Counted from the stretch's first letter, positions 1 to 23,597 are shown. The stretch: 64,000 nt of DNA from Gemmatimonadota bacterium (GCA_028287285.1 JAQBPY010000254.1:1507-65506), one strand, 5' to 3'. The notes: generated by a model from the letters alone, not told the origin. Translations and numbers: made by a program.

Positions 1-1874
1 GCACGGGCCAGCTCACGGCCGTGGGGCCTGGCTTTGCCACCATCAACGTGACGAGCAGTGAGTCCACCACGGGCTCGGTGACGGTTCAGGTGTGCCCGAA
101 TCTCGCGGTTGGCGAGGTGTATACCACGTCTGGACCAGGCGCGGGAAACGTCTGTGTCGGCGGCACCGCGTCCGATGCGGAGTACACGTACATGCCGCTG
201 AATACGTCCACTTCCGGTGCCAGCCTGAGGACCATTGGCACGGGTATTCAGGCCGTGACGGGACCACCTACTCCCGACCGTATTCCAACGAGCGTTGCGA
301 GCAACCTTGGTCCGCTTCCAGCATCCTCCGTTGTCAACGACTTTTCGATTGGCACATTTGCCGGTGCGGATGCCAAGCTCGCTGCGTTCCAGGCCAGACG
401 GGCATTCCGGCAGTCAATCCCCCGTGCCACCGCGCCGGAATCGTCAAATGAGGATGTGCATGGCCCGTCCGCGCTGAATGAGGTAAGCCCTACGGCAAGC
501 GGCGTCGCGCCAGCAGAGGGCGCAGATGAGCGGCTCACGTGGTATCCCACCGAGACGAGCGCCGGGCACGTCAATGTTTCTGCTGATGCGATGGTGTCGG
601 GAAGCCTCGCCCTCAGGATGATGTCGGTTCCCTCCGTTGGAGACGCCGTTTCCTACAACACGAACAGCGCGTGTTCCGGGTCTCCGTCCGTTAGAACAGG
701 GCTGGTGCGATCCGTTTCGCAGCACGCCATCATCGTGTCGGACACCATGAATCCGACTGGTGGATTCACCACGGCGCAATACGACTCCATGGCACTGGAG
801 TTTGATACCATCGCCTGGCCCGTGGACTCCGCGAACTTCACGGACCCAACGGACATCGATGTGAACGGGCATGTCATCATTTTCTTTACCCGAGCGTTGA
901 ATGAACTCTCACCTCCAGCGTCCTCGTCGGTGATTCCGGGCTTCTTTGCGAGCAAAGACGTTTTTGGATCTGATGACTGCAGCAACAGCAATGGGGCCCC
1001 AACGATGGGTACGGAAATATTGTACATGGCCGTGCCGGATCCCACGGGGTCCATCAACTCGAACGTGCGGACGGTGTCCTTTGTTCGAGGAAGCGCCATT
1101 GTCACTGCCGTCCACGAGTTCCAGCACCTGATCAATGGCTTCGCGCGCGCATATGTGACCGGCGCATCATTCTTCGAGACGGCATGGACGAACGAAGCGC
1201 TCTCCAGTGTCGCAGAAGAGCTGGCATTCTACCGCACCAGCGTGGGCCTGGCTCCGAAGCAGAACATCGTTGTGGGCAATATCAACACCGGGCCAGATGC
1301 GAGCAGGCGCGTTACGGCGTTCAATGCATTCGCGAATCCGAACTTCGGCAGGCTGCGGCCATGGCTGCAACGCCCGGACACCACGGGTATCACGAGCGGT
1401 ACATCCGCCAATACCTTGGCCCCGCGTGGTATCTCCTGGGCATTCCTGCGATATGCGTCGGACCGTGCCAACGTCGGCGACCCGACATTCTTCCGCAATA
1501 TGGTCAACAGCAATCTCGAGGGGATTCCCAACATCCAGCATGCCATTGGAGGAATGGATCCCTGGCAGTGGCTACGCGATTGTATCATCGCTCTCTACGC
1601 GGATGACGCGATCTCGGTTGCCACGCAATACAAAACGCAGAGCTGGGATTATCGCTCCATGTATGGCGCACTCAGTAGCGGCGGTTATGTGAACGTGCTC
1701 GTTCCCCGTGCCCTCACCAACAACGTCGCCCTCACACTTTTGTACAAGGGCGGTGGTGCGAGCTCGTTCGACCGCTTCGGCGTGCCGGCCACGAAATTCG
1801 CGAACATCAACTTGACCCAGTCATCAGCAGCACCACTGCCCACGGTGCTGTTGGCCATCATCAGAACCAAGTAG
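1..1874 (+). CDS. Secreted HExxH zinc metallopeptidase with Big_2-like Ig domain, paralog 1 (5' end outside window)
   Basis: Reading frame is open to nt 1. PGFATINVTSSESTTGSVTVQVCPNLAVGEVY aligns by eye with PGFATINITSTESTTGSVTIQVCPNLAVGEVY in the 12357..14960 paralog. HExxH site is VHEFQHLIN, with NEALSSVAEE downstream. Both paralogs end in RTK. Confidence 0.75.
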   Translation, partial: TGQLTAVGPGFATINVTSSESTTGSVTVQVCPNLAVGEVYTTSGPGAGNVCVGGTASDAEYTYMPLNTSTSGASLRTIGTGIQAVTGPPTPDRIPTSVASNLGPLPASSVVNDFSIGTFAGADAKLAAFQARRAFRQSIPRATAPESSNEDVHGPSALNEVSPTASGVAPAEGADERLTWYPTETSAGHVNVSADAMVSGSLALRMMSVPSVGDAVSYNTNSACSGSPSVRTGLVRSVSQHAIIVSDTMNPTGGFTTAQYDSMALEFDTIAWPVDSANFTDPTDIDVNGHVIIFFTRALNELSPPASSSVIPGFFASKDVFGSDDCSNSNGAPTMGTEILYMAVPDPTGSINSNVRTVSFVRGSAIVTAVHEFQHLINGFARAYVTGASFFETAWTNEALSSVAEELAFYRTSVGLAPKQNIVVGNINTGPDASRRVTAFNAFANPNFGRLRPWLQRPDTTGITSGTSANTLAPRGISWAFLRYASDRANVGDPTFFRNMVNSNLEGIPNIQHAIGGMDPWQWLRDCIIALYADDAISVATQYKTQSWDYRSMYGALSSGGYVNVLVPRALTNNVALTLLYKGGGASSFDRFGVPATKFANINLTQSSAAPLPTVLLAIIRTK

Positions 1875-1952: not shown

Positions 1953-3155
1953 GTGCCGAGCGCCCTCCGCGTCCTCTTCATTGCCAGCGCATATCCTCGT
2001 TTCGAGGGCGACGTCATCACCCCGTGGCTCGGGGCGACGATCGCGCATCTGCGCGGGGTAGGGGTGGACGTCGAAGTCCTTGCGCCGGCGTACCACGGCT
2101 CGCCGGATCACATCGTGGACGGCGTGCCGGTGCACCGGTTTCGCTACGCAACATCGGCCTGGGAGATGTTGTCGCATGACAATCCCATTCCGTGGCAGCT
2201 CTCGGAGCGGCCAATTCGACTGGGGCTGGTGCCGGGTTACGTGCTCGCCGCCGCTGCCGCTGCCACGCGGCTGGCCAGGAGCGAGCGGTTTGACGTGGTG
2301 CACGCGTTCTGGCCTGTCCCGCATGCCGTGCCGGGCTTGATTGCACGCCGGCTGACGGGAATCCCCCTCGTCTCCACGTTTTTCGGCGCCGAGCTGCACT
2401 GGCTGGCGCGCAAGCACGGGTGGGCTCGGTGGGCCGTTCGCGCAATCGTCAGCCAGTCGGACGCAGTGACGGCCATTTCCACGCACACGGCAAATCAGCT
2501 TCGCGTCGTTGCTCCCGCCGCTCAGCCGTTCGTGGTCCCCTTTGGTGCAGCCACATCACTTGCCGCAGCGGACGCGCATGTGCCGCATGAGGGAGAGCAG
2601 GCCTTTCTGTTCGTGGGCCGGCTCGTTGCCCGTAAAGGAGTGGATGTGCTGCTCGCCGCACTGTCGCAGCTGGACGACGCACGCCTCGTGATCGTGGGCG
2701 ATGGCGCGGAGCGACAGGCACTCGAGGAACAGACTCGCCACCTCGGCATCGCAGATCGGGTAAAGTTCACCGGGTACCTGCCGCGCACGGAGCTCGAGGC
2801 GTACCTGCAATCATGCCTCGCGCTGGTGCTTCCTGCCGTAACCAACGAGGTCGCCGGCACCGAAGGACTCGGTGTCGCGCTGATCGAGGCGCTGTCGTAC
2901 GGCAGGCCGGTCATTGCCAGCGACGTTGGCGGAATACCGGACGTGGTAATCCATGAGCGTACAGGGCTGCTCGTGCCCGAAGGCGACGCCATGGCGCTGG
3001 CGCGGGCAATGGAACGTCTCGAGCGGGACCATGCATTTGCGTGCGAGCTCGGTGAACGTGGCCGCGCACATGTACAGGACCGATTTTCGTGGTCCGCCAT
3101 TGTCGGCGCACTCCGTTCCATCTACGATACCGCGATCACTCGGCGGGCCACGTGA
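1953..3155 (+). CDS. Glycosyltransferase family 4 (GT-B, retaining type)
   Basis: 400-aa ORF with GTG start. C-terminal GT4 signature EGLGVALIEALSYGRPVIASDVGGIPDVVIHERTGLLVPEGD. Confidence 0.8.
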   Translation: MPSALRVLFIASAYPRFEGDVITPWLGATIAHLRGVGVDVEVLAPAYHGSPDHIVDGVPVHRFRYATSAWEMLSHDNPIPWQLSERPIRLGLVPGYVLAAAAAATRLARSERFDVVHAFWPVPHAVPGLIARRLTGIPLVSTFFGAELHWLARKHGWARWAVRAIVSQSDAVTAISTHTANQLRVVAPAAQPFVVPFGAATSLAAADAHVPHEGEQAFLFVGRLVARKGVDVLLAALSQLDDARLVIVGDGAERQALEEQTRHLGIADRVKFTGYLPRTELEAYLQSCLALVLPAVTNEVAGTEGLGVALIEALSYGRPVIASDVGGIPDVVIHERTGLLVPEGDAMALARAMERLERDHAFACELGERGRAHVQDRFSWSAIVGALRSIYDTAITRRAT

Positions 3156-4294
3156 GTGGTGCGCGCATCAATGTCCTGCACTGCTGCTACGATGATCCGG
3201 ACAATCCGTGGGTCGGGGGTGGAGGAGCGCGCCGGATCTTCGAGTTGTATCGTCATCTGCTCGATACCGTCGACGTCACCATCGCGACGGGCGCTTATCC
3301 TGGCGCGCGTGAAGGGCGATTCCATGGACTAGGCGTTCTTCGGCTCGGCAACGGACGCACCTACTTCGGAAGCCGGCTGACGTATGTAGCGGCGGCATCG
3401 CAGCTGCTTCGCACGGCGCACTATGATGTCGCCATCGTGGACCATTCGGCGTATGCGCCAGTGATGATTCCGTCGGGACGTCCCGTGGGCATGACGGTGC
3501 ACCACCTCACCGGCCCGGTGGCGCGGGAGCGTTGGGGCAGGCTTGGCGGCGCGGCACTCGCACGCGTGGAACGCGCGACGCTGCGCCGAGCGCGCGTGTT
3601 GAGCGCCACGTCGTCAGCCACCGAGCAGGCGTTGCGGGCCATCCTCGCCCCCGACGTCCGCATCGCTCGCGTTTCGTCAGGCGTGGCAGATGAATTCTTC
3701 GGGTTGGTCCGGCACGAGGCGGACTACGTGGCGTACGTGGGCCGGCTCGACGCGGTGCAAAAGGGGCTCGATGTACTGCTCGATGCATGGGCGCTGTTCT
3801 GCCGCTCCAACCTCACCACACACTTGTTCATTGCCGGACGCGGGCCGCATGAGCGCATACTGCGCGCGCAGGCGGAGCGGCTTGGACTCGACACTCGTGT
3901 CACTTTTCTTGGTGCATTGGCCAACGACGCGCGGAACACACTTCTAGCGGGTGCCGCGTGCCAGGTGATGCCCTCACGCTTTGAGGGATTCGGTATCGTG
4001 GCCGCCGAGGCACTCGCCGCCGGTGTGCCGCTCATCGTGTCCGATGATCCGTCGCTGCGCGAGATTGTTGGAGGTCCCGACGCGGGGGTCGTGGTGCCGC
4101 GCGGCGACGTTGATGCACTTGCAGGCGCGCTGCAGCGACTCTTGTTGGACGGGGCAGGGCGCATCCGGTTGTCGGCGCGGGGCAAGGCGCGCGCGGAGCA
4201 GTTTCGCTGGCGTGTCGTTGCCGACGCGCACATTGAATACCTTCACAGCATCATTGCCGCCGGCGGGCGGTCGGGGTACCAGAGTCGCGCATGA
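3152..4294 (+). CDS. Glycosyltransferase family 4
   Basis: EGFGIVAAEALAAGVPLIVSDDPSLREIVGG motif. Preferred start is GTG 3152 (GTGA overlap with the upstream stop). The ORF track extends to 3089, which would overlap the upstream gene by 67 nt. Confidence 0.75.
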   Translation: MSGARINVLHCCYDDPDNPWVGGGGARRIFELYRHLLDTVDVTIATGAYPGAREGRFHGLGVLRLGNGRTYFGSRLTYVAAASQLLRTAHYDVAIVDHSAYAPVMIPSGRPVGMTVHHLTGPVARERWGRLGGAALARVERATLRRARVLSATSSATEQALRAILAPDVRIARVSSGVADEFFGLVRHEADYVAYVGRLDAVQKGLDVLLDAWALFCRSNLTTHLFIAGRGPHERILRAQAERLGLDTRVTFLGALANDARNTLLAGAACQVMPSRFEGFGIVAAEALAAGVPLIVSDDPSLREIVGGPDAGVVVPRGDVDALAGALQRLLLDGAGRIRLSARGKARAEQFRWRVVADAHIEYLHSIIAAGGRSGYQSRA

Positions 4295-6741
4295 GCCTTC
4301 GTCAATTCCTGAGTGATCCTGCAGAGGAGCCGGCGCATCGCGCGATCACGCGCGGAGCGCTCGTGCTGTATGCGGCCGTCGCACTGGTGTTCTTCGCACC
4401 GGCATTCCTGCCGGGCCAGCAGATCGGTGGCACCGACTACCTCACCGGCGGCTACTACTTCCTGGAATTTGCAATGCGCCGGATAGGCGCGGGCGCGTTG
4501 CCAAAATGGGTGCCGTACATTTTTGGCGGCTTGCCCATGTACGCCAATCCGGGCGGGCTGTTCTATCCCGTGCGGCTGCTGATGTCGGCGCTGCTGCCGG
4601 TTGCGCGGGTGATGCCTGCCGTCTTCGTTGTCCAATTCGCACTTGCCGGTATCGGCACACATCTCCTGGTGCGCGCGCTGGGAGTGCGGCACTGGGTCGC
4701 GCTGATCGCGGGGGTCGCATTCGAGCTCACGGGTGTGAGCATCTCGTACGTGTATGCGGGGCACGACGGCCGCATCATCGTGGCAACGCTGTCGCCGTTC
4801 GTTTTCTATTTCGTGTTGAGCGCTGTACGCTCCGGCGAGTTGCGCTGGTTCGTGGGGCTCGCGGTCACTCTGGCGTTCGCGCTGCTCTCGGCGCAGATCC
4901 AGAGCACGTACTACCTGTTGATCGCGGGTGGGCTGTGGGCGGCGTTCCTGCTGGTGAAGTTTCGCCGGGACATGCGCGGCCTCCAGCTCGGATCGCGGAC
5001 GGCACTCGGTCTCGCCGCGGTGGCGCTCGCCTTTGGCGTGGCAGCGGTGAACCTTCTTCCGTTCTCGGGCTACATCAAGGATTCTCCCCGCGCCGAAAGC
5101 ACGAACAGGGACTACGCGTTCTCGACACAGTTCTCCATGCCGCCCGTGGAGACAATGGGCATGGCGGTGCCGGAGCAGGCGGGCATCCTCGGCAATTATC
5201 ACGGCGAGAACGAGTTCAAGCTCCACACCGAGTACGTGGGGGCGTTGGTGGTGCTGATGCTCCTTGTCGGTGTGATGCTGTCGCGGCGAGACAGCACGTG
5301 GCAGTTCATGGGTGGGCTCGCCGCTTTCATGCTGTCGATCAGCTACGGCTCGCACACGCCGCTTTACCGGCTGTACTACATCGCGCTGCCGGGCACGGCG
5401 AAGTTTCGCTCTCCGTCCATCGCACTCTACCTGGTATCGTTGTGCGTCGTCGTCATGGCGGCCCTGACCCTCGAGCGGCTCGCACGTCTGAGCGCCGACC
5501 GCGAGTCGAGTCCCGATGTGCGCAGGCTGGGCAAGGCCGCCAGACTCCTCACGGCTTCTGCCGAGGTTTCGCTGGTGGGGTTCCTGATCGCCGCGGGCAC
5601 CGCGGTTGACGGAAGCGATCGCGCGTTGGGATGGGCGCGCTTCTTCATCTTTGCGTGGGTAACGGCCGTCGTGCTGCGCCGGCTCGCGCGTGGAACGGTT
5701 ACGCTTCGCGCGGCGACGCTCATTCTCCTGGTAACCACCGCCAGCGATCTGCTGTTGATCGATCGGCACTTCATCACCACCGAAGGTGCGCCCGATACCG
5801 TGTTCGCCGAAGATGACGTGGTGCACTACCTGAAGGGCCACACGCCGGGCCGCGTGTGGGTATTTCCCTTTCCCGAGGATGCGAAGGCGGCGCACTACAT
5901 CGCCAACGGCCGGTTTGGTCCACGCTCGGACTACCTGATGCACTTCGGCATCGCGCAGGCAGGCGGTGAGCACGGAAACCAGCTCTACCGGTGGAACCAG
6001 CTCGTGGGCATCGCGAAGAACGGCAATGTGCTCGACTGGCACAATTTCGTGGAGTATCCGGCCATCATGGAGGCCGCGAGCATCCGGTACATCCTGAGTG
6101 GCGTACAGCTGCAGCTCTACGACATGAAGACAAAACAGGGCATGCCGGGCATCAAGGAGGTGCACAACGGCTCCGCGTTCATCTACGTGAACAACCGCGC
6201 GCTGGGACGTGCGCAGCTCGTGCCCACGGTGCGCGTGGTCAAGGATGGCGGCGCACTGGCCGTCATGCGCACGAATGACTGGGATCCGCGCATGGTGGCC
6301 GTCGTCGAGGCGCCGGCCGCCCCGTTCACGAGTCCGGAGCTGCCGCCCGTGGGCCCGACGGGGCCCGACGGTTTGCCCACGAGCGCCCTGGCGATACCAG
6401 GATCCACCCAGATCGACGTTGACGACCCGGATCATGTCGAGGTGTCCGTGCGCGCCACGGCGCCCGCCATGCTTGTCCTCAACGACAACGACGCAGATGG
6501 ATGGATCGCCACGATCGATGGGCGTGAGACGCCCATTCTCCGTACGAACCATGCGTTCCGCGGCGTGGCGGTAACGGCGGGTGCGCACAAGGTGGTCTTC
6601 AGCTTCAGGCCACGACTTTTCTACACCGGGTTGTGGATCTCCCTCGCCGCCGTGCTCGTGCTGGGTGCGGGAGTGGTGGTGGCACTCCTCCAACTCGTGC
6701 GAACCTCGCGTTCGGCGCGGCTCCTGCCTGCTGCCGCCTGA
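4291..6741 (+). CDS. YfhO-like polytopic membrane protein (GT-C-type glycosyltransferase candidate), paralog 1
   Basis: 816 aa, ATGA overlap with the upstream GT4. Many N-terminal TM segments, a large C-terminal extracytoplasmic part and a final TM (LWISLAAVLVLGAGVVVALLQLV). Motifs GTDYLTGGYYFLEF and WVPYIFGGLPMYANPG. Paralog at 17864..20248. Confidence 0.6.
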   Translation: MSLRQFLSDPAEEPAHRAITRGALVLYAAVALVFFAPAFLPGQQIGGTDYLTGGYYFLEFAMRRIGAGALPKWVPYIFGGLPMYANPGGLFYPVRLLMSALLPVARVMPAVFVVQFALAGIGTHLLVRALGVRHWVALIAGVAFELTGVSISYVYAGHDGRIIVATLSPFVFYFVLSAVRSGELRWFVGLAVTLAFALLSAQIQSTYYLLIAGGLWAAFLLVKFRRDMRGLQLGSRTALGLAAVALAFGVAAVNLLPFSGYIKDSPRAESTNRDYAFSTQFSMPPVETMGMAVPEQAGILGNYHGENEFKLHTEYVGALVVLMLLVGVMLSRRDSTWQFMGGLAAFMLSISYGSHTPLYRLYYIALPGTAKFRSPSIALYLVSLCVVVMAALTLERLARLSADRESSPDVRRLGKAARLLTASAEVSLVGFLIAAGTAVDGSDRALGWARFFIFAWVTAVVLRRLARGTVTLRAATLILLVTTASDLLLIDRHFITTEGAPDTVFAEDDVVHYLKGHTPGRVWVFPFPEDAKAAHYIANGRFGPRSDYLMHFGIAQAGGEHGNQLYRWNQLVGIAKNGNVLDWHNFVEYPAIMEAASIRYILSGVQLQLYDMKTKQGMPGIKEVHNGSAFIYVNNRALGRAQLVPTVRVVKDGGALAVMRTNDWDPRMVAVVEAPAAPFTSPELPPVGPTGPDGLPTSALAIPGSTQIDVDDPDHVEVSVRATAPAMLVLNDNDADGWIATIDGRETPILRTNHAFRGVAVTAGAHKVVFSFRPRLFYTGLWISLAAVLVLGAGVVVALLQLVRTSRSARLLPAAA

Positions 6742-6742
6742 C

Positions 6743-7693
6743 ATGACGGACGGCGCGCCGGCTCAACCGCCACGGCAGCGCGCCGCGCCATTTCGCCTCG
6801 CCCGGCTGGCGGCCGTCATCGTGCTTGCGGCGGCGTCCATACTGTACATGGGAACCGCACTCGCTCGCGCGCGCGGCAGTCTGCACAGCATCGCATGGCT
6901 GGCGCACCCGGGCGAGCTTGCGGCAAGCATCGCCATTCAGGCTGTGTCGCTGACGCTGGGCTGCCGCATCTGGTTCGAGATCCTTCAGCGGATCGCGCCC
7001 TCGCCCGTGACGGCAGTGCAGCACTGGCGCATCTGGGCACTCACGAATCCAACACGCTACATCCCCGGCCGCATCTGGCACGTGGCGTCGCTCGCGGCGT
7101 TCATGCGGTCTGCCGGCGTGACACCCGTCGCGATGCTGACGTCGATCGTGGTGCACATGTGGCTCTACGTCCTTGCCGCGTGCGCCATGGGACTCGTGCT
7201 GCTTCCGGTCACGCCAGCATCCGTGGCGGGGGCGGTGGCAGTACTGTGTGGCGTGGCCGCTGGAACGCACCCGCGCCCCCTTCGGGCGATGCTCCACATT
7301 GCATCACGCCTGAGCGGGCAGCCCGCACTCGAGTGGCGCAGCGGCTGGCTCCCAACCCTTGCACTTGTTGCTGCCGACGTGGGCATCCATTCGCTGAATG
7401 GGCTGGGCGTTAGCACGCTGTTAGGGGCAACAATGGATCTTCCCGTGAGCAGCTGGCTGCACGTCGCGGGCGCAAACGCGATCGCCTTCCTCGCCGGATA
7501 CGCCAGCATGGTTCCCGCAGGGCTCGGCGTGCGTGAAGCGACGTTGACGGCTCTTCTGGAGGGAAATTCAATGGCCGGAGGAGCCGCCGCGGCCGCGCTG
7601 GTGGTGCGTGCGGCGGCAACCTTCGTCGAAGTGCTGCTGGCGCTCGTCGCCGGGGTGATGCCAAGAGCTCAGGGGCCTGTTACCGGCGCGTAA
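6743..7693 (+). CDS. UPF0104 / LPG-synthase-TM-like 'flippase-like' membrane protein
   Basis: ATG at 6743, 1 nt after the yfhO-like stop. Polytopic, with YIPGRIWHVASL and VPAGLGVREATL (P-x-G-x-G-x-x-E type motif). The ORF-track extension to 6581 overlaps the upstream gene. Confidence 0.6.
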   Translation: MTDGAPAQPPRQRAAPFRLARLAAVIVLAAASILYMGTALARARGSLHSIAWLAHPGELAASIAIQAVSLTLGCRIWFEILQRIAPSPVTAVQHWRIWALTNPTRYIPGRIWHVASLAAFMRSAGVTPVAMLTSIVVHMWLYVLAACAMGLVLLPVTPASVAGAVAVLCGVAAGTHPRPLRAMLHIASRLSGQPALEWRSGWLPTLALVAADVGIHSLNGLGVSTLLGATMDLPVSSWLHVAGANAIAFLAGYASMVPAGLGVREATLTALLEGNSMAGGAAAAALVVRAAATFVEVLLALVAGVMPRAQGPVTGA

Positions 7694-9963
7694 CCGAGAC
7701 CGGTGGGTGCCTCGAGCACGTTCTTCCGCTCCCGGACCACGGTGAGCAGATCGAGCGCCGCGCCGATGCGCTGTACCTGTGCGCGGACCACCTGCGCAGG
7801 CCTGGCGGAATCACCCTTTTGCGGCAGGACGAAGCCCATGCGTGGCGCCTGCAGGGCGTAGGTGGAGTCCAGTCCGTCCGAAACGCCGAGTCCCACGCGC
7901 ATGTACAGGTAAGGCGCGTTCACAGATGGTATGTCCACCCACCGGCCCTGCCGCTCGAGTCCGGCGGGCCCGCGGAACGACTGCCACAACGCCAGCGTGC
8001 GCGGCACGTCCACGTAGCCGATGCCGGTGTTCACGGCGCCCGGTTCAGCGGCAGGATCGGCGACGAGCTTGCGCGCGAGACCATGCGTGATGAGATGCCC
8101 GCCGAGATACTTGTCCATGGCCGGCGTGCCGGCACCGCTGCTGAAGTAGATGGGACGGTTCACCCCCGCGTCATGGATGATCCGCAGCATGACGACCACG
8201 TCACGCGTGAGCATCGTGGGCGGGATGTCCACCTGAAAGCCATTGAGCTGCGCTCGGCTCGCACCCGTCTGCATCTCCTGCGGAATGGCGTTGGCCTCGC
8301 TCCGCGTCAGCGCCAGCACAGGGGTGAGCGGCCGCGCGGGAAAATTCCTGTAGATCGCGGGCCCCCGCGCTGCGTCATAGGGCTCGGGGGTCTTCACGAT
8401 CAGCTCGCGCACGTACCAGTCCGTCGCGAGATAGGCGAGCAGCACGATGGTCACGTCGCGACGCACACCGAGCACCTGCTGTGCGTACCACAGGGGAAAG
8501 GAATCGTTGTCGCCGCCCGTGAACAGCACGCCGTTGGGCTCCACGCTATTGAGCGCGTCGACGGCAAAGTCCTCCGCAAAGGTCTCCTTGCGGCGAGATG
8601 CGGCGCTCCAGTTCACGATAAGTGGCACGAGTGCCACGCACATCACCGGGCCGGCGATGTGCCAGTGACGGGGGCGGGGCACAACGGCGGCGCGTCCATC
8701 GAGCCCTCCGCTACCCGCGACCAGCTCCGCGATGCGGCGCCACACGAACGCCAGTCCCAGGCCGATCCATACCGAGAGCGCGGAATAGCTCCACAGGTAG
8801 AAGTAGTCCCGGTCGCGCACCTCGTGCAGTCGCGGATCCTGCACGCCCATGGCCATGGCCTGCGAGTAGCCGAGCTTGAAGTTCAGGTAGTAGATGAGCC
8901 CCGCGGTGAGCGTGGCAATGAGGGTCGCAAACGGCACGAAGCTGCGCCGGTCTGCCTTCCAGTGCGTATACCCTCCGGCACCGGCAAGCAGGAGCACCGC
9001 CACAGCGATGGCGCTCTGCCAATCCGGAGACATGCCGGCGGGATCACGGAACCACTGCCACTTGAAGTACAACCACCACATCCGCACCTGGTTGGGCAGG
9101 CTCTGCTGGCGATCGAGCAGCGAAGGCTTTGCGTACTGGGTGCGGTTGTTCTCGTAGAGAAACCGGTCGAGCGTTTCCCTGCTCACCGTGCATCCCCAAT
9201 GCGGTGCGCCATCCTCGCATGCCGACGGATGCCCTTCGTTGATTTCCAGCCGGAATGCCGACCGAATGGGCAGCATCGCGTATGGCGTGAGGCCGAGCAC
9301 GAAGAGCGCCGCGCACAGGGCGAGCAACCGCGGCCGCCTGAGCGTGCGGGGCTTCGTGTAGAGCACGGCTGCAAGCAGCGCGGGGCCGGCAAGCAGGCCG
9401 GCAATGTGAATGGTATAGCCGATGCCCAAGCGATAACACAGGAGGCCGAGCCGCTTGTCTGCCGCAGGCCCGTCCGGATCGCTTTGCCAGAGCAGCGTGG
9501 TCCAGAGGTCCAGCGTGAGCAGAAAGAGCGAAACGGTATAGACCTTCTCGTTCACGACCGACTGGTTCCAGACGGTGAACGCACTGGCGCCCACGAGCGC
9601 CGTGGCCGCGCCGGCAACACGCGCGCGCGACGGTGAGAGCCAGTTGCGCGCGACATGTTCGGTAACGAGAAACCACAGGCCGGCCGACAGGGCGCTGGCA
9701 AGTGCCACCAGCACGTTCAGGCGTCCCGCGACAGTTCGGGCAATTGGCAGCAGGGCGACCACGCGCCCGAGCAGCACGAAACCGGGATTGCCGGGCGGAT
9801 GCGGAATTCCAAGACGTGCCGCAGCGGCCACGTATTCGCCCGCATCCCACAAGCCGATCGTCGGCGATAATGTGACCAGATACAGCAGCAACGCGGCGGC
9901 GGACACGGCGCCCGCGGTGCGATACGATGGCGCGGAGAGCGGGCTCGCCCTGGAGTCACTCAT
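7669..9963 (-). CDS. DUF2723 (TMEM260-like) GT-C family membrane protein, paralog 1
   Basis: 764 aa. N-terminal LSPTIGLWDAGEYVAAAARLGIPHPPGNPGF is typical of DUF2723. Multiple TMs and a large C-terminal soluble domain. ATGA overlap with the upstream GT4 at 9960-9963. Confidence 0.7.
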   Translation of the reverse strand: MSDSRASPLSAPSYRTAGAVSAAALLLYLVTLSPTIGLWDAGEYVAAAARLGIPHPPGNPGFVLLGRVVALLPIARTVAGRLNVLVALASALSAGLWFLVTEHVARNWLSPSRARVAGAATALVGASAFTVWNQSVVNEKVYTVSLFLLTLDLWTTLLWQSDPDGPAADKRLGLLCYRLGIGYTIHIAGLLAGPALLAAVLYTKPRTLRRPRLLALCAALFVLGLTPYAMLPIRSAFRLEINEGHPSACEDGAPHWGCTVSRETLDRFLYENNRTQYAKPSLLDRQQSLPNQVRMWWLYFKWQWFRDPAGMSPDWQSAIAVAVLLLAGAGGYTHWKADRRSFVPFATLIATLTAGLIYYLNFKLGYSQAMAMGVQDPRLHEVRDRDYFYLWSYSALSVWIGLGLAFVWRRIAELVAGSGGLDGRAAVVPRPRHWHIAGPVMCVALVPLIVNWSAASRRKETFAEDFAVDALNSVEPNGVLFTGGDNDSFPLWYAQQVLGVRRDVTIVLLAYLATDWYVRELIVKTPEPYDAARGPAIYRNFPARPLTPVLALTRSEANAIPQEMQTGASRAQLNGFQVDIPPTMLTRDVVVMLRIIHDAGVNRPIYFSSGAGTPAMDKYLGGHLITHGLARKLVADPAAEPGAVNTGIGYVDVPRTLALWQSFRGPAGLERQGRWVDIPSVNAPYLYMRVGLGVSDGLDSTYALQAPRMGFVLPQKGDSARPAQVVRAQVQRIGAALDLLTVVRERKNVLEAPTGLGYAPVTGP

Positions 9964-11078
9964 GGGCGCGCGGCCGTCAACAGCAACGCCTCGAACGCAT
10001 CGGCGGCGCGCGCCCAGGTAAAAGTCTGCGCGTACGCGCGCGCCCGCGCGCCTAGCACACGCGCCAGCTCCGCATCGAGCGCGATGCGCCGCATGGCCCC
10101 CGCGAGCTCGGTGACGTTTCCATGCGGCACCAGGATACCCGTCTGTCCATCACGAACAGCGTCGCGCAGGCCCGGCGAATCACTCGCAATGGACGGTGTG
10201 CCGTATGTTGCGGCATCGAGAATGCTCATGCCCCAACCCTCCTTGGCGGACGTGATGACGTTGGCCCATGCGCGCGACATGAGTGCGAATTTTTCCTCCT
10301 CCGGGACGAAGCCGCGAAACTCTACCCGGTGCGCGATACCGAGACGCTCTGCGTGCCGCCGCAGCGCGCGCTCCTCCGAGCCGCGCCCCGCGACGATCAA
10401 CCGCGCCTCGACGTGCTCCTGCGTCAGCCGCGCCATGGCCTGGAGGAGCAGGTCGACGCGCTTGTACGGCTGCAAGCGTCCAATATAGAGAAACTCCGGA
10501 GTGTCGGCGCGCGCCACGTCATCGTGCTGCGGCGGCGCTGACTCGGGAATGCCGTTGTGGATTACCCGCACGGCGTCGCGATGCCGCGTGCGGCGGCGGG
10601 CTTCGACGGCCGAGCTGTCCGAGACGGCGACGACCGGAACCGACGCATACAGCGGCAGCAGCGCGTGCTCCAGCAACACCGTCGCCGTCGCCACCAATGG
10701 ATTGGCGGCGGCGAACGCGGAGGCACCGAATAGATGGTGCACCATCAACACCACCGGCCCGCGCACCCACACCGGCGTCGCCATCGGAATCTTGTTGAGG
10801 TCCTCGACGACTACGTCGAAGTGCCGGTCATGCCGCTCCCGATACCATGCCCGTGCGGCGACCGGGTACGTCCACCGGTTCCCACGGCGATGGACGGCAA
10901 TGCCATCGAGCTCCTGGTCGGGCGCCGCGCCGGCCCACGAGGATGACACGAGCGTCACGCGGTGGCCCCGCCGCGCGAGACGGCCAAAGATCTCGTGGAG
11001 GTTCGTTTCCGCGCCTCCGGCCTCAGGATGCTCACGATCCAGCCAGTTGAAAACGAGCAGATCAAGACAGGGTGGCAC
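9960..11078 (-). CDS. Glycosyltransferase family 4
   Basis: LLVFNWLDREHPEAGGAE N-terminus and KEGWGMSILDAATYGTPSIASDSPGLRDAVRDGQTGILVP motif. Start placed at in-frame GTG 11078. The 590-aa track ORF (to 11732) would run antisense through the GT2 gene. Confidence 0.7.
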   Translation of the reverse strand: MPPCLDLLVFNWLDREHPEAGGAETNLHEIFGRLARRGHRVTLVSSSWAGAAPDQELDGIAVHRRGNRWTYPVAARAWYRERHDRHFDVVVEDLNKIPMATPVWVRGPVVLMVHHLFGASAFAAANPLVATATVLLEHALLPLYASVPVVAVSDSSAVEARRRTRHRDAVRVIHNGIPESAPPQHDDVARADTPEFLYIGRLQPYKRVDLLLQAMARLTQEHVEARLIVAGRGSEERALRRHAERLGIAHRVEFRGFVPEEEKFALMSRAWANVITSAKEGWGMSILDAATYGTPSIASDSPGLRDAVRDGQTGILVPHGNVTELAGAMRRIALDAELARVLGARARAYAQTFTWARAADAFEALLLTAARP

Positions 11079-11114
11079 TGGCGGGACTGTCGGACGCGAC
11101 GATACTGTGCGGGG

Positions 11115-12101
11115 GTGGCAGACTACGAAGGCGCGCCCGCGGAGGCAAGCGCACGACGAAATTTCGCCGTGATCATTCCGGCGTTCAATGAACGCGAGAA
11201 TGTCGCGCCGCTCTTCCGTGCGCTCGCGCTCGCTTTCGAGACTCACGACCTTGCTGGCGAGCTCGTGTTCGTGGACGATGGATCCACCGACGGTACGTTC
11301 GAGGCAGCGGAAGCCGAGGCGCGGCAATTTGCCGGGCCGGCCACCGTGGTTCGGCATGGGCGCAATCTTGGCAAGACCGAAGCGATCCTGCGTGGCGTGC
11401 AGGCCACCACGCGGCGCTTCGTGGTACTGCTCGACGCCGATCTGCAGTATGCACCGGATGACATTCCTCGATTCCTCGACCTGCTTGATCAGGGATGGGA
11501 TGTCGTGGCCGGCCGGAAGGTGGGCGCATATGCCAAGCAGGCGGTGAGCGGCATCTACAACTGGCTTGCGATTCGGTTGTTCGGCGTCACGGTGCGTGAT
11601 GGAAATTCCATGAAGGCGTGCCGGCGGGCGCTGCTCCTGGAAATTCCACTCCGGCACAACTGGCACCGGTTCTTCGTGGTGCTGGCGCACATGCGCGGGT
11701 ACCGTCTTGCGGAGATCGACGTCGCACTCCATCCGCGTGTGGCCGGCGTGGCCAAGTTCGATTCACGCGGCCGCATCCTGGGGGGAGTCGGCGACCTGAT
11801 CGTGGTGTGGCTGGCGCTACGAGTCAGTACGAAGCCGATGCACGTGTTCGGAGGCATCGGGCTGGTGACATTCGGCGTGGGGGCGGTGGTCGGGTTGATC
11901 ACGCTGGCGCTGCGCGCAGCCAACGTTTTGCCGCCGCCCATTGGCTACCGGCCCCTGGTAGGTCTCGCTGCGTTGCTGCTGCTGGTGGGAATCACGCTGT
12001 TCGCGATGGGGATCATCGCGGAACTGGTGGCCATTCTGCACGCGGAGATCGAGTCGCTGCGACGGGAGCTGCGGATACGGACCGGGGCGGGAGCCTCTTG
12101 A
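11115..12101 (+). CDS. GT2 polyprenyl-phosphate sugar synthase (GtrB/DPM1/ArnC-like) with C-terminal TM helices
   Basis: FAVIIPAFNERENV, VFVDDGSTDGT and LLDADLQYAPDD motifs. Two C-terminal hydrophobic helices (IGLVTFGVGAVVGLITL, AALLLLVGITLFAMGIIAELV). Start uncertain: GTG 11115 is preferred, ATG 11028 is possible. Confidence 0.7.
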   Translation: MADYEGAPAEASARRNFAVIIPAFNERENVAPLFRALALAFETHDLAGELVFVDDGSTDGTFEAAEAEARQFAGPATVVRHGRNLGKTEAILRGVQATTRRFVVLLDADLQYAPDDIPRFLDLLDQGWDVVAGRKVGAYAKQAVSGIYNWLAIRLFGVTVRDGNSMKACRRALLLEIPLRHNWHRFFVVLAHMRGYRLAEIDVALHPRVAGVAKFDSRGRILGGVGDLIVVWLALRVSTKPMHVFGGIGLVTFGVGAVVGLITLALRAANVLPPPIGYRPLVGLAALLLLVGITLFAMGIIAELVAILHAEIESLRRELRIRTGAGAS

Positions 12102-12213
12102 CTCGGCACTTCGGTTGTGCTCGCTAGCGACTCACCGTGGCGAATCCGTCAAGACAAAACGCTTACCAAGCACTTCTATTATTCCCCACGGGCGGTGACT
12201 AGATTGGGCCCTA

Positions 12214-12235
12214 TGCGTCTCTGACAAGAGACGCA
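12214..12235. other. Perfect 9-bp stem / 4-nt loop hairpin in the GT2-peptidase 2 intergenic region
   Basis: tgcgtctct-gaca-agagacgca. No U-tract follows. Function unknown. Confidence 0.3.
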
Positions 12236-12356
12236 CGGAGACAACGCCGGATGTGATGCGGTGCAGCGCGCATCGGCTTGAGCTGTTGAAGCCGCCAATG
12301 ATGCCGATGCTTCGCCGGCAGACGTGTTGATCTCCTTTCCGAGTAGAACTCCAAGA

Positions 12357-14960
12357 ATGCCACCAAGCAAGTTCGCGACCATTGCTGCCAGTGTTGTTCT
12401 TCTGTCCTGCGGAGATCGCCAGATTTCCGCTCCAGGAAGCAACGCCGCCGTACCGTCTGCGCCTGTGCCAGGTGCGTCCAATGCGGTCACGCTGCAGCGA
12501 CTTGCCTGTTCGGCACGCGTCGACACGAAGTCCGTGCGCTGTGCCCTTGCGCCCACCGGCGTGAGCCCTGACCTGATCGTTGGTGGCCAGGGTACGTATG
12601 TGACGCTCGCATCGTCGAACGTGACCTATGACGCCGGTACGCATGTCCTCAGCTCTGACGTGTCGGTTACGAACCTCATTCCGCAGGCCCTCGGCACCAA
12701 CGACGGCGTGACCGGCGATGGTACGGGCTTGCGGATCTTCTTTGATCAGGTGCCCACGACGACGAGCGGTACGGGTGTCGTCACGGTGTCGAACGCCACG
12801 GGAACAGGCACGTTCACCGCGTCGAACCAGCCGTATTTCCTGTATCCGGGCACGGCGCTTGGCGGCGACGACATTCTGTCCACGAATGAGACGTCCGCAA
12901 CGGTGCAGTGGCAGTTCACGCTGGACCCCACCGTCACCACATTCGAGTTCTACGTGTACGTGAGTGCGAACGTGCACTATCCCAACGGCTATGTGGACGC
13001 GGTGCAGGCGGACACGATGCTGAATCAGGCCGCGACGTCGTCCATCACGGCAACGTCGCGCACGGCCGTGGGCAATGCGGTGACGGGCTCCACGCTCTCG
13101 TACGCGAGCACGGCGCCGGCCGTCGCGACGGTCAATACCTCGGGTGTCATCACGGCCGTTGCGCCTGGTTTCGCCACGATCAACATCACGAGCACCGAAT
13201 CGACGACGGGCTCGGTGACCATCCAGGTGTGTCCGAATCTCGCCGTGGGCGAGGTGTACAACACCAGTGGCGCGAGCGGCGAGAACATCTGCGTGGGCGG
13301 CGGTGCATCTGCGATGGAATACACCGTGATGCCGGTCAACAGCGGCGGTACGTCGCAGTCGCTCACCGTAACCGGCACTGGGATCCAGGCTGTGACGGGC
13401 CCTCCAACGCCGGATCGCATTCCCGTGAGCCGGCTGCTTCTGACCGCGAGCGCCGCCCCCACAGGCGGCATCCAGAAAGGCGCATTCGGCGGTGAATACT
13501 CGATGAACGCCGCGGCGGTCGACGGCGCCAGCCTGGTGCACCAGGTTGCCATGGCCGAGTCGCGTCACGGTCCGTCCGTCGAGCAGACTCCGGATGCCGC
13601 GGATGGAGTGACGGCCGCAGATGGCGGAAGCCAGCGGCTGATGTGGTACCCGCCCCGGTCGGACGAGGGGAACGACGACTCAGCCCACTCCCCCGGGCTG
13701 GCGCTCATGAAGGCAGCGATGCCTGTCAGGGACGATTTGACGCCCACTGTTGGCGCGCTGCTGGAGTACAATACGACCAACGCCTGCTCAGGCTCCCCCT
13801 CCCTGCGAACCGGCATGGTGAGAACGGTGTCGGCCCATGCGGTCGTCGTCGGCGATACGGCGAACCCGGCAGGTGGATTCACGACGGCACAATACGACTC
13901 CATCGCACTCGAATTCGATACGATTGCGTATCCCACGATCACAGGCAGCTTCGGCACGCCAAGGGATATGGACAGCAACGGTGGCCGCATTGTCCTGTTC
14001 TTTACGCGGGCCGTCAACGAGCTGTCGCCTCCCGCGTCGTCATCGGTAAACCTTGGGTTCTTTGCACGGAAGGATGTCTCCACCACGACCGAGTGCACCA
14101 ATAGCAACGCGGCGGAGATTCTCTACATGCTGGTGCCCGATCCAACGGGGACGGTAAACTCCAACGTGCGTACTGTTTCGTTCGTGCGAGGCAATACCAC
14201 GGGCACGACCGGGCATGAGCTCGTCCATATCATCAACACGGACTACCGGTATTCTCACGGCGCGCCGTATGAGGCGGGCTGGCTGGACGAGGCACTGGCG
14301 CACATCGGCGAGGAGCTGATGTTCTATCGCGCGTCCGTGGGCCTGTCTCCGCGGCAGAACATCCAGCTTTCGACGTTGACGACGGGTCCCAATGCGTCGA
14401 GACGGGTTGCGGCGTTCAACGCGTATGCGAATCAGAATTTTGGCAGGTTTCGCGCTTGGCTCCAGCGGCCGGACACGGCCGGTCTCGTGAACACGCAGGG
14501 TGCTTCCCTGGCGCGGCGCGGGTTCGGGTGGGCGTTTCTCCGCTACGCGGCAGACCGGATCAACGGCACGGATGCGACGTTTTTCAGGGCGCTGGTGTCA
14601 CAGGACACGGGGGTCGTGAACCTGCAGGCGGCGATCGGCGTCGGAGCGAACGTCCATGACTGGATCCGCGATTGTATCACCGGAATCTACGCGGACGACA
14701 ACGCGTTCACGGTGTCGAGCGACTACCAGCATCCATCATGGAACTACCGGTCCGTGTACGGGGGGCTGGGTGGCTTTCCGTTGCTGGCACGGCCACTGAC
14801 AAACAATGCTGGGCTTCCACTCAGTTACGGGGCAGGTGGTACCACGGCCTATACCCGGTTCGGTGTGGCTGCGGCAACGTATGCGAACATCAAGATCCAG
14901 GCTCCCGGCGCGACAACGCCCGCTGCGACGGTGAGAATGGCGTTGGTACGGACGAAATAG
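12357..14960 (+). CDS. HExxH zinc metallopeptidase lipoprotein with Big_2 domain, paralog 2
   Basis: Lipoprotein signal MPPSKFATIAASVVLLSCGD (lipobox LLSC). Big_2-like segment ends in GFATINITSTESTTGSVTIQV. HExxH site is TGHELVHIIN, with DEALAHIGEE downstream. Ends in RTK. The track start GTG 12324 adds 11 aa. Confidence 0.75.
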   Translation: MPPSKFATIAASVVLLSCGDRQISAPGSNAAVPSAPVPGASNAVTLQRLACSARVDTKSVRCALAPTGVSPDLIVGGQGTYVTLASSNVTYDAGTHVLSSDVSVTNLIPQALGTNDGVTGDGTGLRIFFDQVPTTTSGTGVVTVSNATGTGTFTASNQPYFLYPGTALGGDDILSTNETSATVQWQFTLDPTVTTFEFYVYVSANVHYPNGYVDAVQADTMLNQAATSSITATSRTAVGNAVTGSTLSYASTAPAVATVNTSGVITAVAPGFATINITSTESTTGSVTIQVCPNLAVGEVYNTSGASGENICVGGGASAMEYTVMPVNSGGTSQSLTVTGTGIQAVTGPPTPDRIPVSRLLLTASAAPTGGIQKGAFGGEYSMNAAAVDGASLVHQVAMAESRHGPSVEQTPDAADGVTAADGGSQRLMWYPPRSDEGNDDSAHSPGLALMKAAMPVRDDLTPTVGALLEYNTTNACSGSPSLRTGMVRTVSAHAVVVGDTANPAGGFTTAQYDSIALEFDTIAYPTITGSFGTPRDMDSNGGRIVLFFTRAVNELSPPASSSVNLGFFARKDVSTTTECTNSNAAEILYMLVPDPTGTVNSNVRTVSFVRGNTTGTTGHELVHIINTDYRYSHGAPYEAGWLDEALAHIGEELMFYRASVGLSPRQNIQLSTLTTGPNASRRVAAFNAYANQNFGRFRAWLQRPDTAGLVNTQGASLARRGFGWAFLRYAADRINGTDATFFRALVSQDTGVVNLQAAIGVGANVHDWIRDCITGIYADDNAFTVSSDYQHPSWNYRSVYGGLGGFPLLARPLTNNAGLPLSYGAGGTTAYTRFGVAAATYANIKIQAPGATTPAATVRMALVRTK

Positions 14961-15275: not shown

Positions 15276-15551
15276 TCAGGTCGCCTGACGAATCAGGGTC
15301 TGTTCGCTGAGGTCGCGGAGCAGTGCATTCACGGCATCGGTTGCCACATTCGAGGAAACATCGAAGGTGGCGACCAGTTGCGCCGTGATGCTATCCGTAT
15401 CAAGGCCGCTCTCCAGCAACTTCCATACGTGCGCACCCACGCGATTGAGCCGGAAGTAGTGTTTGCTGCCCATGTGGAGCAGGATCGCCTCGCCGTCCAG
15501 GTGTGACACGAGGACATCGGGTGAGGGCACGTAGCGCAGCGCGGTGCTCAT
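15276..15551 (-). CDS. PqqD-family protein (stand-alone RiPP recognition element candidate)
   Basis: 91 aa. VLVSHLDGEAILLHMGSKHYFRLNRVGAHVWKLLESGLDTDSI matches the PqqD pattern (dge.vll...yy.LN..ga.iW.ll). Its start codon abuts the stop of the upstream propeller gene. Confidence 0.75.
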   Translation of the reverse strand: MSTALRYVPSPDVLVSHLDGEAILLHMGSKHYFRLNRVGAHVWKLLESGLDTDSITAQLVATFDVSSNVATDAVNALLRDLSEQTLIRQAT

Positions 15552-17692: not shown

Positions 17693-17863
17693 ATTCTCGC
17701 TGTGTACCCGCTACCGTGGTCATGCATGGGACGCACCCGTGGCGTCCGGCAGCTAATAAATACCCAATGAACAATCTACACAGGTCGACCCGGAAAGTCC
17801 CCCTCAACAACAAGCTCGTGCATAGAGCTACCGGTGCCAGGCCAATGAGCGTACTATCGAGCC

Positions 17864-22500: not shown

Positions 22501-22705
22501 TGCGCCCTATTTGGGCGCCAGGGGGTAACGCCTGTGTTCCGGGCCTTCGGTGTACCAGGCAACGAGGAAGGAAAAACCCTGTGGTAGGGAACGTAGACGC
22601 ACGCGGCGGTGGCTCGAGACACGGAATCCCCAGCTATGCCGTCTCGGCTGCCAGGTCGGTTCCTGATTCCGAACTTAATGCGTAATTCGAGCTCCGCCAA
22701 GCGTT

Positions 22706-23563: not shown

Positions 23564-23597
23564 ACACGTGCACGACACGGCGAGACGGCAACCCTTT

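Follow-up and report, generated by a model that had tools for sequence, protein, structure and literature searches.

What does a bacterial gene cluster make when it sets two unrelated glycosyltransferases (GTs) of the GT-C fold beside a polyprenyl-phosphate GT, a putative flippase and metallopeptidase-like lipoproteins? We addressed this question for a cluster in the first 22.5 kb of a stretch of DNA from a Gemmatimonadetes metagenome-assembled genome (MAG), referred to below as the window (64,000 nucleotides, the whole stretch that was analysed). An earlier note, made from this DNA, had read the cluster as a single complete module that makes a polyprenyl-phosphate-linked sugar, flips it and uses it for glycosylation outside the cytoplasm. 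With a little more confidence than doubt, we read the locus instead as a composite, in which a phylum-wide part and a part confined to a small clade both serve envelope glycosylation.

A phylum-wide operon joined by lineage-specific genes

Scanning one genome per GTDB species yielded 80 Gemmatimonadota loci carrying a YfhO homologue of 40-56% identity, and the window proteins were compared with these loci by tblastn. Gene order could be counted at the 58 loci with adequate flanks, and the distance to GT2 at the 29 whose flanks both reached 5 kb or more. An operon of the order GT4a-(x)-GT4b-YfhO-UPF0104 recurs through this set. Most of the 80 loci have a GT4a orthologue (45-53% identity) upstream of YfhO; of the 58, 35 have GT4b as the next gene before YfhO and 43 have UPF0104 as the next gene after it. 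The individual architectures were GT4b-YfhO-UPF0104 (33/58), GT4a-YfhO-GT2 (11/58), x-YfhO-UPF0104, in which no GT4 was recognised directly upstream (8/58), and GT4a-YfhO-UPF0104 (2/58). An ArnC-like GT2 occurs within 10 kb of YfhO in 25 of 29 loci and is its direct downstream neighbour in 12 of 58, namely the 11 GT4a-YfhO-GT2 loci and one GT4b-YfhO-GT2 locus. Because most of the cluster recurs in dozens of other Gemmatimonadota genomes, its arrangement is not due to chance, and window positions 1953-7693 are this phylum-wide operon in its standard order.

To this operon the lineage of the window has added the gene encoding the TMEM260-like (DUF2723) GT-C, GT4c and the HExxH genes. A DUF2723 gene stood beside YfhO in only two of the 80 YfhO loci (L006 and L007), which are those most similar to the window. 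In a second set, 80 metagenome loci with ordinary DUF2723 homologues (44-51% identity) among the matches listed, YfhO, GT2, any GT4 gene, UPF0104 and any HExxH relative were all absent within 10 kb, and one ordinary DUF2723 gene, on a 3-Mb contig, was placed among purine and tRNA-synthetase genes. The single module of the earlier note therefore holds as regards its genes, all of which exist, but not as a unit, since GT4a-GT4b-YfhO-UPF0104 with GT2 is found across the phylum and normally without DUF2723. Apparent GT4c matches antisense to GT2 in many loci were due to a spurious N-terminal extension of the query (open reading frame, ORF, 9960-11732) and were ignored.

Two GT-C families with conserved catalytic residues

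Hidden Markov model (HMM) searches, together with AlphaFold2 models compared by Foldseek, placed the YfhO-like and DUF2723-like proteins in two GT-C families, as the earlier note had proposed. YfhO1 matched PF09586 with 45.3 bits and its paralogue YfhO2, which is 54% identical to it, with 38.7 bits (gathering threshold, GA, 28.5); the match to YfhO1 is limited to the C-terminal ~70 residues (profile positions ~762-835), which form a beta domain and the last transmembrane (TM) helix. Since the profile thus covers only the YfhO C-terminus, the fold was tested directly. The AlphaFold2 model of YfhO1, built on 30 homologues, had a predicted local distance difference test (pLDDT) score of 87.7 and a predicted template modelling (pTM) score of 0.90, and its best Foldseek matches in the PDB were all GT-C enzymes: AftD at the top, then ArnT, STT3, PglB, EmbB and Pmt4, with a probability of 1.00 for AftD, ArnT, STT3 and PglB. 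Sequence searches of the PDB with YfhO, alone and with a profile, gave no match; only the fold comparison succeeded. Across the homologues D49 (in GTDY), 10 residues past TM1, is invariant, in keeping with the acidic residue that is conserved in the first extracytoplasmic loop of such GT-C enzymes and that the earlier note had left to structure prediction. The H158-D159-G160-R161 motif is also conserved, with G160 and R161 invariant and H158 and D159 present in at least 90%.

The two TMEM260-like proteins of the window, 62% identical to each other, matched PF11028 with 134.1 and 137.7 bits (GA 24.2), and the first aligned with human TMEM260 (9rql_A; E 2.4e-14 for the single sequence, 1.6e-20 for a profile), the sequence alignment being confined to ~220 residues at the N-terminus and to a stretch of ~130 that surrounds the catalytic Asp. 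A cryo-EM study of the human enzyme describes three residues needed for activity, namely D52 and H67, which engage the donor mannose, and D441, in a luminal Rossmann-like domain, which is the catalytic base, while R264 binds the donor phosphate, Y267 the mannose and R355 also contributes (bioRxiv 10.64898/2026.03.17.711096). In the HMMER alignment, window residues D40, H55 and D485 (in GGDNDSF) stand opposite human D52, H67 and D441, and all three are invariant in 33 homologues. So are two further motifs, R274-x-x-Y277 and RDRDYF (R383/R385), which by spacing and position are plausible counterparts of human R264/Y267 and R355 in a region outside the HMMER alignment. The AlphaFold2 model of TMEM260-like 1 (pLDDT 79.2) has an alpha/beta domain at residues 479-652 followed by five C-terminal helices, and its top Foldseek matches were PglB, ArnT, STT3, AglB and AftA/B. 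In the source database these proteins are annotated with PF28495 (TMEM260_2); no match to TPR was obtained. The TMEM260-like protein of the window has 100% identity to JWM95_3186. Given the conserved catalytic residues and the GT-C folds, the YfhO and TMEM260-like enzymes both look catalytically competent. Bacterial DUF2723 homologues are abundant, with more than 5,700 matches in a database search; the literature searched yielded no function or substrate for them, and the one paper in it that mentions DUF2723 speaks of no more than 'distant homologs in bacteria'.

The two GT-C genes were duplicated as a pair

The MAG carries three TMEM260-like/YfhO pairs, one elsewhere in the genome and two in the window, the second of which (17864-22500) the earlier note did not mention. 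A DUF2723 gene adjoins YfhO only in the window and in loci L001 (twice), L003, L004/L005, L006 and L007. Wherever the homologues are at least 55% identical, in all of these loci (both pairs of L001 included) and in window pair 2, the two genes always lie tail to tail with 3' ends that overlap by 4-36 nt; in window pair 1, UPF0104 lies between YfhO1 and TMEM260-like 1.

In neighbour-joining trees rooted on the ordinary homologues and drawn without support values, the paired clade was monophyletic in both families and resolved into the same three orthogroups. Orthogroup 1 comprises window pair 1, L004 and the first pair of L001 (L001a); orthogroup 2, the third pair of the MAG and L003; and orthogroup 3, window pair 2, the second pair of L001 (L001b) and L007. 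The mirrored TMEM260-like and YfhO trees indicate that the pair had a single origin and thereafter duplicated as a whole. Although the trees carry no support values, this co-duplication is the strongest evidence here for functional coupling of the two GT-C enzymes.

A polyprenyl-phosphate GT2 and a proposed GT4-UPF0104 unit

GT2 (PF00535, 87.5 bits; 74% identical to its L001 counterpart) is a polyprenyl-phosphate glycosyltransferase and not a polymer synthase, judging from its alignments. It matches the ArnC structure 8vxh end to end (E 3.5e-27, residues 54-365 against 32-340), an alignment that takes in LLDADLQ opposite TLDADLQ (the DAD motif) as well as the C-terminal TM region, and it also matches Synechocystis GtrB (5ekp) and archaeal dolichyl phosphate mannose synthase (DPMS, 5mlz). 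These results bear out the earlier description of a GtrB/DPM1-like GT2 with C-terminal TM helices. The best NCBIfam models were ArnC (NF007986, 96.4 bits, cut-off 529) and PgfS (NF047588, 89.4 bits, cut-off 500), both matched over their full length; with scores so far under these equivalog cut-offs, no sugar can be assigned to GT2.

All three GT4 proteins matched PF00534, and the interleaving of their genes in ATGA- and GTGA-coupled chains was as the earlier note had described. GT4a (143.7 bits) is 61% identical to L001_GT4_414 and scored 64.6 bits against the N-acetylglucosaminyl-phosphatidylglycerol (GlcNAc-PG) synthase model, for which the cut-off is 480. GT4b scored 115 bits. GT4c (134 bits) has 62% full-length identity to the equally placed L001_GT4 and is translationally coupled to TMEM260-like 1 in both the window and L001.

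UPF0104 was the one family expected by the earlier note that fell short of its threshold: YfhO, DUF2723 and GT2 were all matched above theirs, while the window UPF0104 protein reached 18.5 bits against a GA of 33.4 for PF03706. Its match nevertheless spans profile positions 9-300 of 302, and among the sequences scanned (23 positional orthologues and the L001 fusion domain described below, the window protein included) all 24 matched PF03706, with a best E of 1.1e-16. The protein also matched the flippase region of MprF (E 4.6e-5); a UPF0104 profile found no match in the PDB.

Two further observations tie UPF0104 to GT4b. In L001 a single 685-residue protein (16357-18414, minus strand) joins GT4b (57% identity, residues 5-368) to UPF0104 (41%, residues 400-641), the two genes between which YfhO1 sits in the window. 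Of the 58 loci, 33 had both GT4b right before YfhO and UPF0104 right after it, 2 had GT4b only, 10 had UPF0104 only and 13 had neither, counts that ignore phylogenetic non-independence; all 11 GT4a-YfhO-GT2 loci lacked both. Apparent YfhO::UPF0104 fusions, long frames in L055, L057, L062 and others, were rejected as high-GC artefacts, the UPF0104 frame differing from that of YfhO in L057 and L072, the two that were checked.

Precedent exists for such a unit. The Pseudomonas aeruginosa gpgSDF genes, for a GT4, a deacetylase and a UPF0104 'flippase', make glucosaminyl-phosphatidylglycerol, and hexSDF of Clostridioides difficile is analogous (PMC12713373); PplT domains fused to GT-B enzymes are also known (bioRxiv 10.1101/2022.03.11.483950). 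On the strength of the fusion, the co-occurrence and the GpgS/GpgF precedent, we read GT4a, GT4b and UPF0104 as a glycolipid synthase and translocase unit, a role that fits UPF0104 better than that of a lipid-P-sugar flippase. The family that the earlier note gave for the candidate flippase is thus probable, in view of the full-length match and the 24 orthologues, but the lipid-P-sugar as its likely cargo is not supported, given that the gene is fused to and co-occurs with GT4b. No GtrA-type flippase gene was found in the cluster: positions 1-23.7 kb hold no spare coding-like ORF, and the small ORFs in the gaps had no GtrA match. The flippase for the polyprenyl-P-sugar may be encoded outside the cluster.

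N-domain lipoproteins beside the pairs

The protein encoded next to GT2, HExxH-b, has a lipoprotein signal with the lipobox LLSC, a beta-rich N-domain of ~160 residues (window 12522-13040, plus strand), a Big_2 Ig-like domain (E 2e-7 against intimin) and an M30-like metallopeptidase domain. No Pfam model matched the last of these; it aligned with lugdulysin (7bb8; E 4.3e-5 for the single sequence, 5.6e-9 for a profile), HELVH and WLDEAL falling with HEYQH and WLNEAL (the HExxH motif and the Glu ligand). HExxH-a, at the window edge, is 52% identical to residues 279-878 of HExxH-b, has a HEFQH motif and is in a frame open back to base 3. Full-length orthologues of HExxH-b (58-59% identity) adjoin the pairs in L001 and L004/L005. 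In the L001 orthologue (5053-7530, minus strand) HELTR replaces HExxH and EQAL replaces the Glu-ligand motif, so that this M30-like protein is probably catalytically dead. Given the degenerate L001 site, proteolysis is not a conserved feature of these neighbours; the N-domain is the shared one.

The N-domain, marked by the motifs GGQ..YV.L.SSNV, VTVqNLi.Q.lGT.DG, GvrVFF and QpYfqY, was also located in L001 (15214-16344), L003 (8439-9743) and L007 (7234-8394), in neighbours that share it alone with HExxH-b: L003_Big2 (434 residues), L001_LTD (376 residues) and an LTD protein of L007 (386 residues). For the pairs with visible flanks, a count that leaves the third pair of the MAG aside, N-domain lipoproteins flank every one, as M30-like proteins (window, L001, L004), LTD-type proteins (L001, L007) or a Big_2-only protein (L003). 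None was found in ~2 Mb of the 160 ordinary loci. A word-indexed search that returned five proteins had suggested a restriction of the N-domain to paired loci, which an exhaustive search ruled out, with 1137 clusters at 50% identity. Throughout this family of Gemmatimonadota lipoproteins the domain is always N-terminal and ~76% of members have a lipobox-like motif, while the C-termini are highly varied (Big_1/2, invasin, FG-GAP, beta-helix); the named members belong to Longimicrobiaceae. The link is therefore one-directional, in that pairs always have an N-domain neighbour and N-domain proteins do not always have a pair.

We regard the N-domain lipoproteins, with moderate probability, as the acceptor of the TMEM260-like enzyme, conserved adjacency making them the best single guess; a glycan-binding, anchoring role of the N-domain is a serious alternative. 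The earlier suggestion that the HExxH proteins are acceptors gains indirect support from the N-domain lipoproteins that flank the checkable pairs and is weakened as regards the peptidase itself, whose site is unconserved. The motif GGQ..YV.L.SSNV loosely resembles the A and B strands of IPT domains; with no Pfam match to TIG, similarity of the N-domain to IPT is not claimed.

A minus-strand operon convergent to HExxH-b encodes a radical SAM/SPASM protein (17692-16700), a PD40/TolB-like propeller lipoprotein (~16727-15552) and PqqD (15551-15276). It looks like a maturation set of the kind used for ribosomally synthesized and post-translationally modified peptides (RiPPs); a search for a precursor peptide for this operon found none. 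The window propeller is 36% identical to one in L167 that adjoins an N-domain protein, and an unrelated contig carries genes for PqqD, an M8 peptidase, an N-domain/Big_2 protein and a PD40 propeller consecutively.

A composite reading of the locus and its alternatives

In the composite reading, polyprenyl phosphate would receive a sugar from GT2 on the cytoplasmic side, a step for which the homology is strong, and the polyprenyl-P-sugar would then be translocated across the membrane, where YfhO, as its fold and conserved residues suggest, would pass the flipped sugar on to an acceptor in the periplasm. Alongside this, GT4a and GT4b may build a glycosylated lipid in the inner leaflet for translocation by UPF0104, a proposal prompted by synteny, the fusion and precedent. 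This GT4-made lipid would be the most likely, and the ancestral, acceptor of YfhO, in a scheme resembling GpgS/GpgF or PimA/PimB followed by GT-C extension. In the lineage-specific part, the TMEM260-like GT-C, co-transcribed with GT4c, would have become paired tail to tail with YfhO, and the pair would have been duplicated into three orthogroups. The TMEM260-like enzyme, whose active site is split as in the human protein, would most likely O-glycosylate the N-domain lipoproteins from the same polyprenyl-P-sugar pool, possibly together with its YfhO partner. A bolder version holds that the two enzymes are a co-evolving and possibly associated GT-C pair that carries out domain-specific O-glycosylation of the Gemmatimonadota-specific N-domain, each pair dedicated to its own neighbouring lipoprotein, as a bacterial counterpart of metazoan TMEM260 and its IPT substrates; we think this improbable.

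Several observations weigh against the composite reading. All of the evidence derives from metagenome-assembled genomes, the PF09586 match to YfhO1 does not extend beyond its C-terminus, and the co-occurrence counts for GT4b and UPF0104 treat related genomes as independent. The lack of a GtrA-type gene in the cluster means that UPF0104 may itself flip the polyprenyl-P-sugar. The paired GT-C genes are convergent and hence not co-transcribed. As to the proposed acceptor, no N-domain gene is immediately adjacent to window pair 2 or to the second pair of L001, the N-domains of four members had no TIG or other credible Pfam match at E<=10, and some members, found on short contigs, have PD40 propeller or S74-like genes as neighbours and no visible GT-C; as the family is so large and has such members, part of the adjacency to the pairs may stem simply from the abundance of N-domain genes.

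It seems unlikely to us that the cluster is instead one linear three-component system, in which the lipid-P-sugar made by GT2 is flipped by UPF0104 and used by both GT-C enzymes on the secreted HExxH peptidases, the GT4s being incidental or extending the glycan. Such a system would agree with the lack of a GtrA-type flippase in the cluster, with the position of UPF0104 straight after YfhO, with the closeness of GT2 to YfhO and with the HExxH orthologues that are conserved neighbours of the pairs. UPF0104, however, is fused to GT4b rather than to GT2 or a GT-C gene and tracks the presence of GT4b, and the 11 GT4a-YfhO-GT2 loci keep the GT2/GT-C pair without it; the operon, moreover, is found in most Gemmatimonadota without a nearby HExxH or DUF2723 gene, and one orthologue carries a degenerate HExxH site.

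Slightly more doubtful is a single envelope lipoglycan or glycolipid resembling the phosphatidylinositol mannosides (PIM) and lipomannan (LM), which the GT4s would prime and YfhO and the TMEM260-like enzyme would extend in turn after flipping, with N-domain lipoproteins that bind the glycan or are unrelated to it. The three GT4 genes are indeed translationally coupled to GT-C genes, the layout recalls the mycobacterial PIM/LM pathways of GT4, GT2 (Ppm1-like) and GT-C enzymes, the top Foldseek match of YfhO1 is the arabinofuranosyltransferase AftD, and the N-domain heads hundreds of otherwise unrelated surface proteins, as an anchoring module might. Such a pathway sits poorly with TMEM260-like proteins in which D485, the luminal catalytic Asp, is retained and whose domains are arranged as in a protein O-mannosyltransferase, with ordinary DUF2723 genes that stand alone across the phylum, apart from glycan genes, and with a cluster that has no polymerase, ligase or polymer-export gene.

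That the YfhO operon works independently of the TMEM260-like genes, their adjacency being a genomic accident of this lineage, would suit convergent genes that are not co-transcribed and families that are unlinked in most of the phylum, but is very improbable given that the adjacency, with its 3' overlaps, is retained in three paralogous copies and several genomes and that the mirrored trees would be unexpected of independent genes.

Gene map and other features of the window

Because the GC content of the window is ~64%, third-position GC (GC3) was used, together with orthologue boundaries, to sort genuine genes from spurious ORFs. All of the described cluster genes have coding-like GC3 (0.72-0.82) and lie at or near the coordinates that had been given for them, with some starts corrected (Table 1). 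GT4b and GT4c start at GTG codons (3152 and 11078, respectively), and the most likely start of HExxH-b is ATG 12357. Two longer ORFs, 9960-11732 and 10962-12101, overlap in antisense and were rejected in favour of GT4c and GT2 as tabulated.

Table 1. Genes of the glycosylation locus and its immediate neighbourhood (window coordinates)
Feature	Position	Strand	Remarks
HExxH-a, M30 (hyicolysin/lugdulysin)-like paralogue	1-1874	+	5' end cut by the window edge; N-terminal domain lies outside
GT4a, cytoplasmic GT-B glycosyltransferase	1953-3155	+	First gene of the phylum-wide operon
GT4b, cytoplasmic GT-B glycosyltransferase	3152-4294	+	PF00534
YfhO1, YfhO-type GT-C glycosyltransferase	4291-6741	+	PF09586, AlphaFold2/Foldseek
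UPF0104/PplT (MprF flippase-domain-like) membrane protein	6743-7693	+	PF03706, below GA
TMEM260-like (DUF2723) GT-C 1	7669-9963	-	PF11028
GT4c, cytoplasmic GT-B glycosyltransferase	9960-11078	-	PF00534
GT2, polyprenyl-phosphate glycosyltransferase, ArnC/GtrB/DPMS type	11115-12101	+	PF00535
HExxH-b lipoprotein	12357-14960	+	N-domain, Big_2 and M30-like domain
Radical SAM/SPASM, PD40 propeller, PqqD operon	15276-17692	-	
YfhO2, paralogous YfhO-type GT-C, second pair	17864-20248	+	PF09586
TMEM260-like GT-C 2, second pair	20245-22500	-	PF11028

The genes are tightly packed. GTGA at 3152-3155 couples GT4a to GT4b, ATGA at 4291-4294 couples GT4b to YfhO1 and, on the minus strand, ATGA at 9960-9963 couples GT4c to TMEM260-like 1. 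The UPF0104 ATG follows the YfhO1 stop by one base. TMEM260-like 1 converges on UPF0104 with a 25-nt overlap and YfhO2 on TMEM260-like 2 with a 4-nt overlap of 3' ends. The start codons of GT4c and GT2 are divergent and 36 nt apart (11079-11114), with identical spacing in L001 (8850-8885), so both promoters must sit within neighbouring coding sequence. The 255-nt gap between GT2 and HExxH-b contains a perfect inverted repeat, GCGTCTC-TGACAA-GAGACGC, at 12213-12240, which has neither a T-run nor an Rfam match; Rfam, tRNA and promoter/terminator scans returned nothing exceeding background.

Upstream of TMEM260-like 2, ~1.2 kb (22501-23697) show a weak codon-position GC bias (~0.6 at all three positions, one frame checked) and include a small possible lipoprotein ORF (23150-23563) with an LAAC lipobox and no Pfam match. 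Beyond 22.5 kb the window genes are unrelated to the cluster (TspO, multicopper oxidase, MutY and others). They include, all on the minus strand, a 1197-residue fusion of GH18-like, polysaccharide deacetylase and processive-type GT2 (chitin-synthase-like or poly-N-acetylglucosamine (PNAG)-synthase-like) domains at 58769-62362, and two proteins that have no relation to the glycosylation locus: a RES-domain protein (a toxin-type domain) at 41360-42403 and an 871-residue Ser/Thr protein kinase at 43137-45752, the latter with a weak C-terminal TPR match below the Pfam threshold.

Significance and relation to known systems

The family assignments at this locus are solid and its comparative pattern is new, but what is said of function beyond fold and residues, including the sugar, the protein that flips each molecule and both acceptors, is inferred. 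For bacterial DUF2723 proteins, the locus offers a concrete substrate hypothesis, the N-domain lipoproteins, along with a likely gene for donor synthesis and a partner enzyme. In this soil phylum, which is widespread and poorly studied, the operon of GT4-GT4-YfhO-PplT with an ArnC-like GT2 probably makes a glycolipid or glycoconjugate of the envelope that is so far undescribed; a search of the literature on Gemmatimonas glycolipids found nothing relevant. The GT4b::UPF0104 fusion adds a further case for the view that PplT/UPF0104 proteins flip the glycolipids of the adjacent GT. If the protein-glycosylation reading were true, O-glycosylation of folded-domain clients by GT-C enzymes would extend to bacteria and help to explain how the metazoan enzyme arose.

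The proposed glycolipid part of the locus has a close parallel in GpgSDF of P. aeruginosa and HexSDF of C. difficile, in which a cytoplasmic GT4 lipid glycosyltransferase is likewise encoded with a putative UPF0104 flippase, the two being fused in L001. Unlike those systems, the window has no deacetylase gene, has two GT4 genes and carries a GT-C gene between GT4b and UPF0104. Lipid A modification by ArnC and ArnT is similar in that the window GT2 aligns best with ArnC, along its full length, and in that both GT-C models count ArnT among their best structural matches; the window lacks ArnA/B/D/E/F genes, and a score of 96 bits against the ArnC cut-off of 529 indicates that the sugar probably differs from that of ArnC.

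In the mycobacterial pathway to PIM, LM and lipoarabinomannan (LAM), PimA and PimB' are GT4 enzymes, Ppm1 is a GT2 and PimE, MptA and AftD are GT-C enzymes. There, too, two GT4 steps on a lipid are followed by flipping and by GT-C extension from the polyprenyl-P-sugar of a DPM1-like GT2, and YfhO1 finds its best structural match in AftD. The window cluster, however, has no inositol-lipid genes and belongs to another phylum with another envelope; the likeness seen is one of logic rather than of sequence-level orthology.

Firmicutes possess multi-component transmembrane glycosylation systems, CsbB/GtcA/YfhO for teichoic acids and GtrB/PgtC2 and PgfS/PgfM1/PgfM2 for Ser/Thr-rich regions of proteins, so that YfhO-family enzymes glycosylate both kinds of acceptor. 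The window resembles them, as judged here from its genes, in combining a membrane-anchored GT2 of the GT-A fold that would make a sugar linked to C55 phosphate (C55-P-sugar) with a YfhO-family GT-C acting outside the membrane, and it resembles the Pgf cluster in particular, in which two GT-C genes lie beside the genes of substrate adhesins. In contrast to these systems, its host is a diderm Gemmatimonadota, UPF0104/PplT stands where one would look for a GtrA-type flippase, the operons include three coupled GT4 genes, YfhO matches PF09586 at its C-terminal end only, and the second GT-C is TMEM260-like rather than a second YfhO, the two GT-C genes having been co-duplicated.

Finally, human TMEM260 (9rql/9rqm), which O-mannosylates IPT domains, shares with the window protein the PF11028 family, a GT-C core, an alpha/beta domain with the catalytic Asp and C-terminal helices. 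The window system would differ in its donor, a bacterial polyprenyl-P-sugar, and in its candidate acceptor, an N-domain that is not recognisably IPT/TIG, and it does differ in having its TMEM260-like gene paired and co-duplicated with that of a YfhO-type enzyme.

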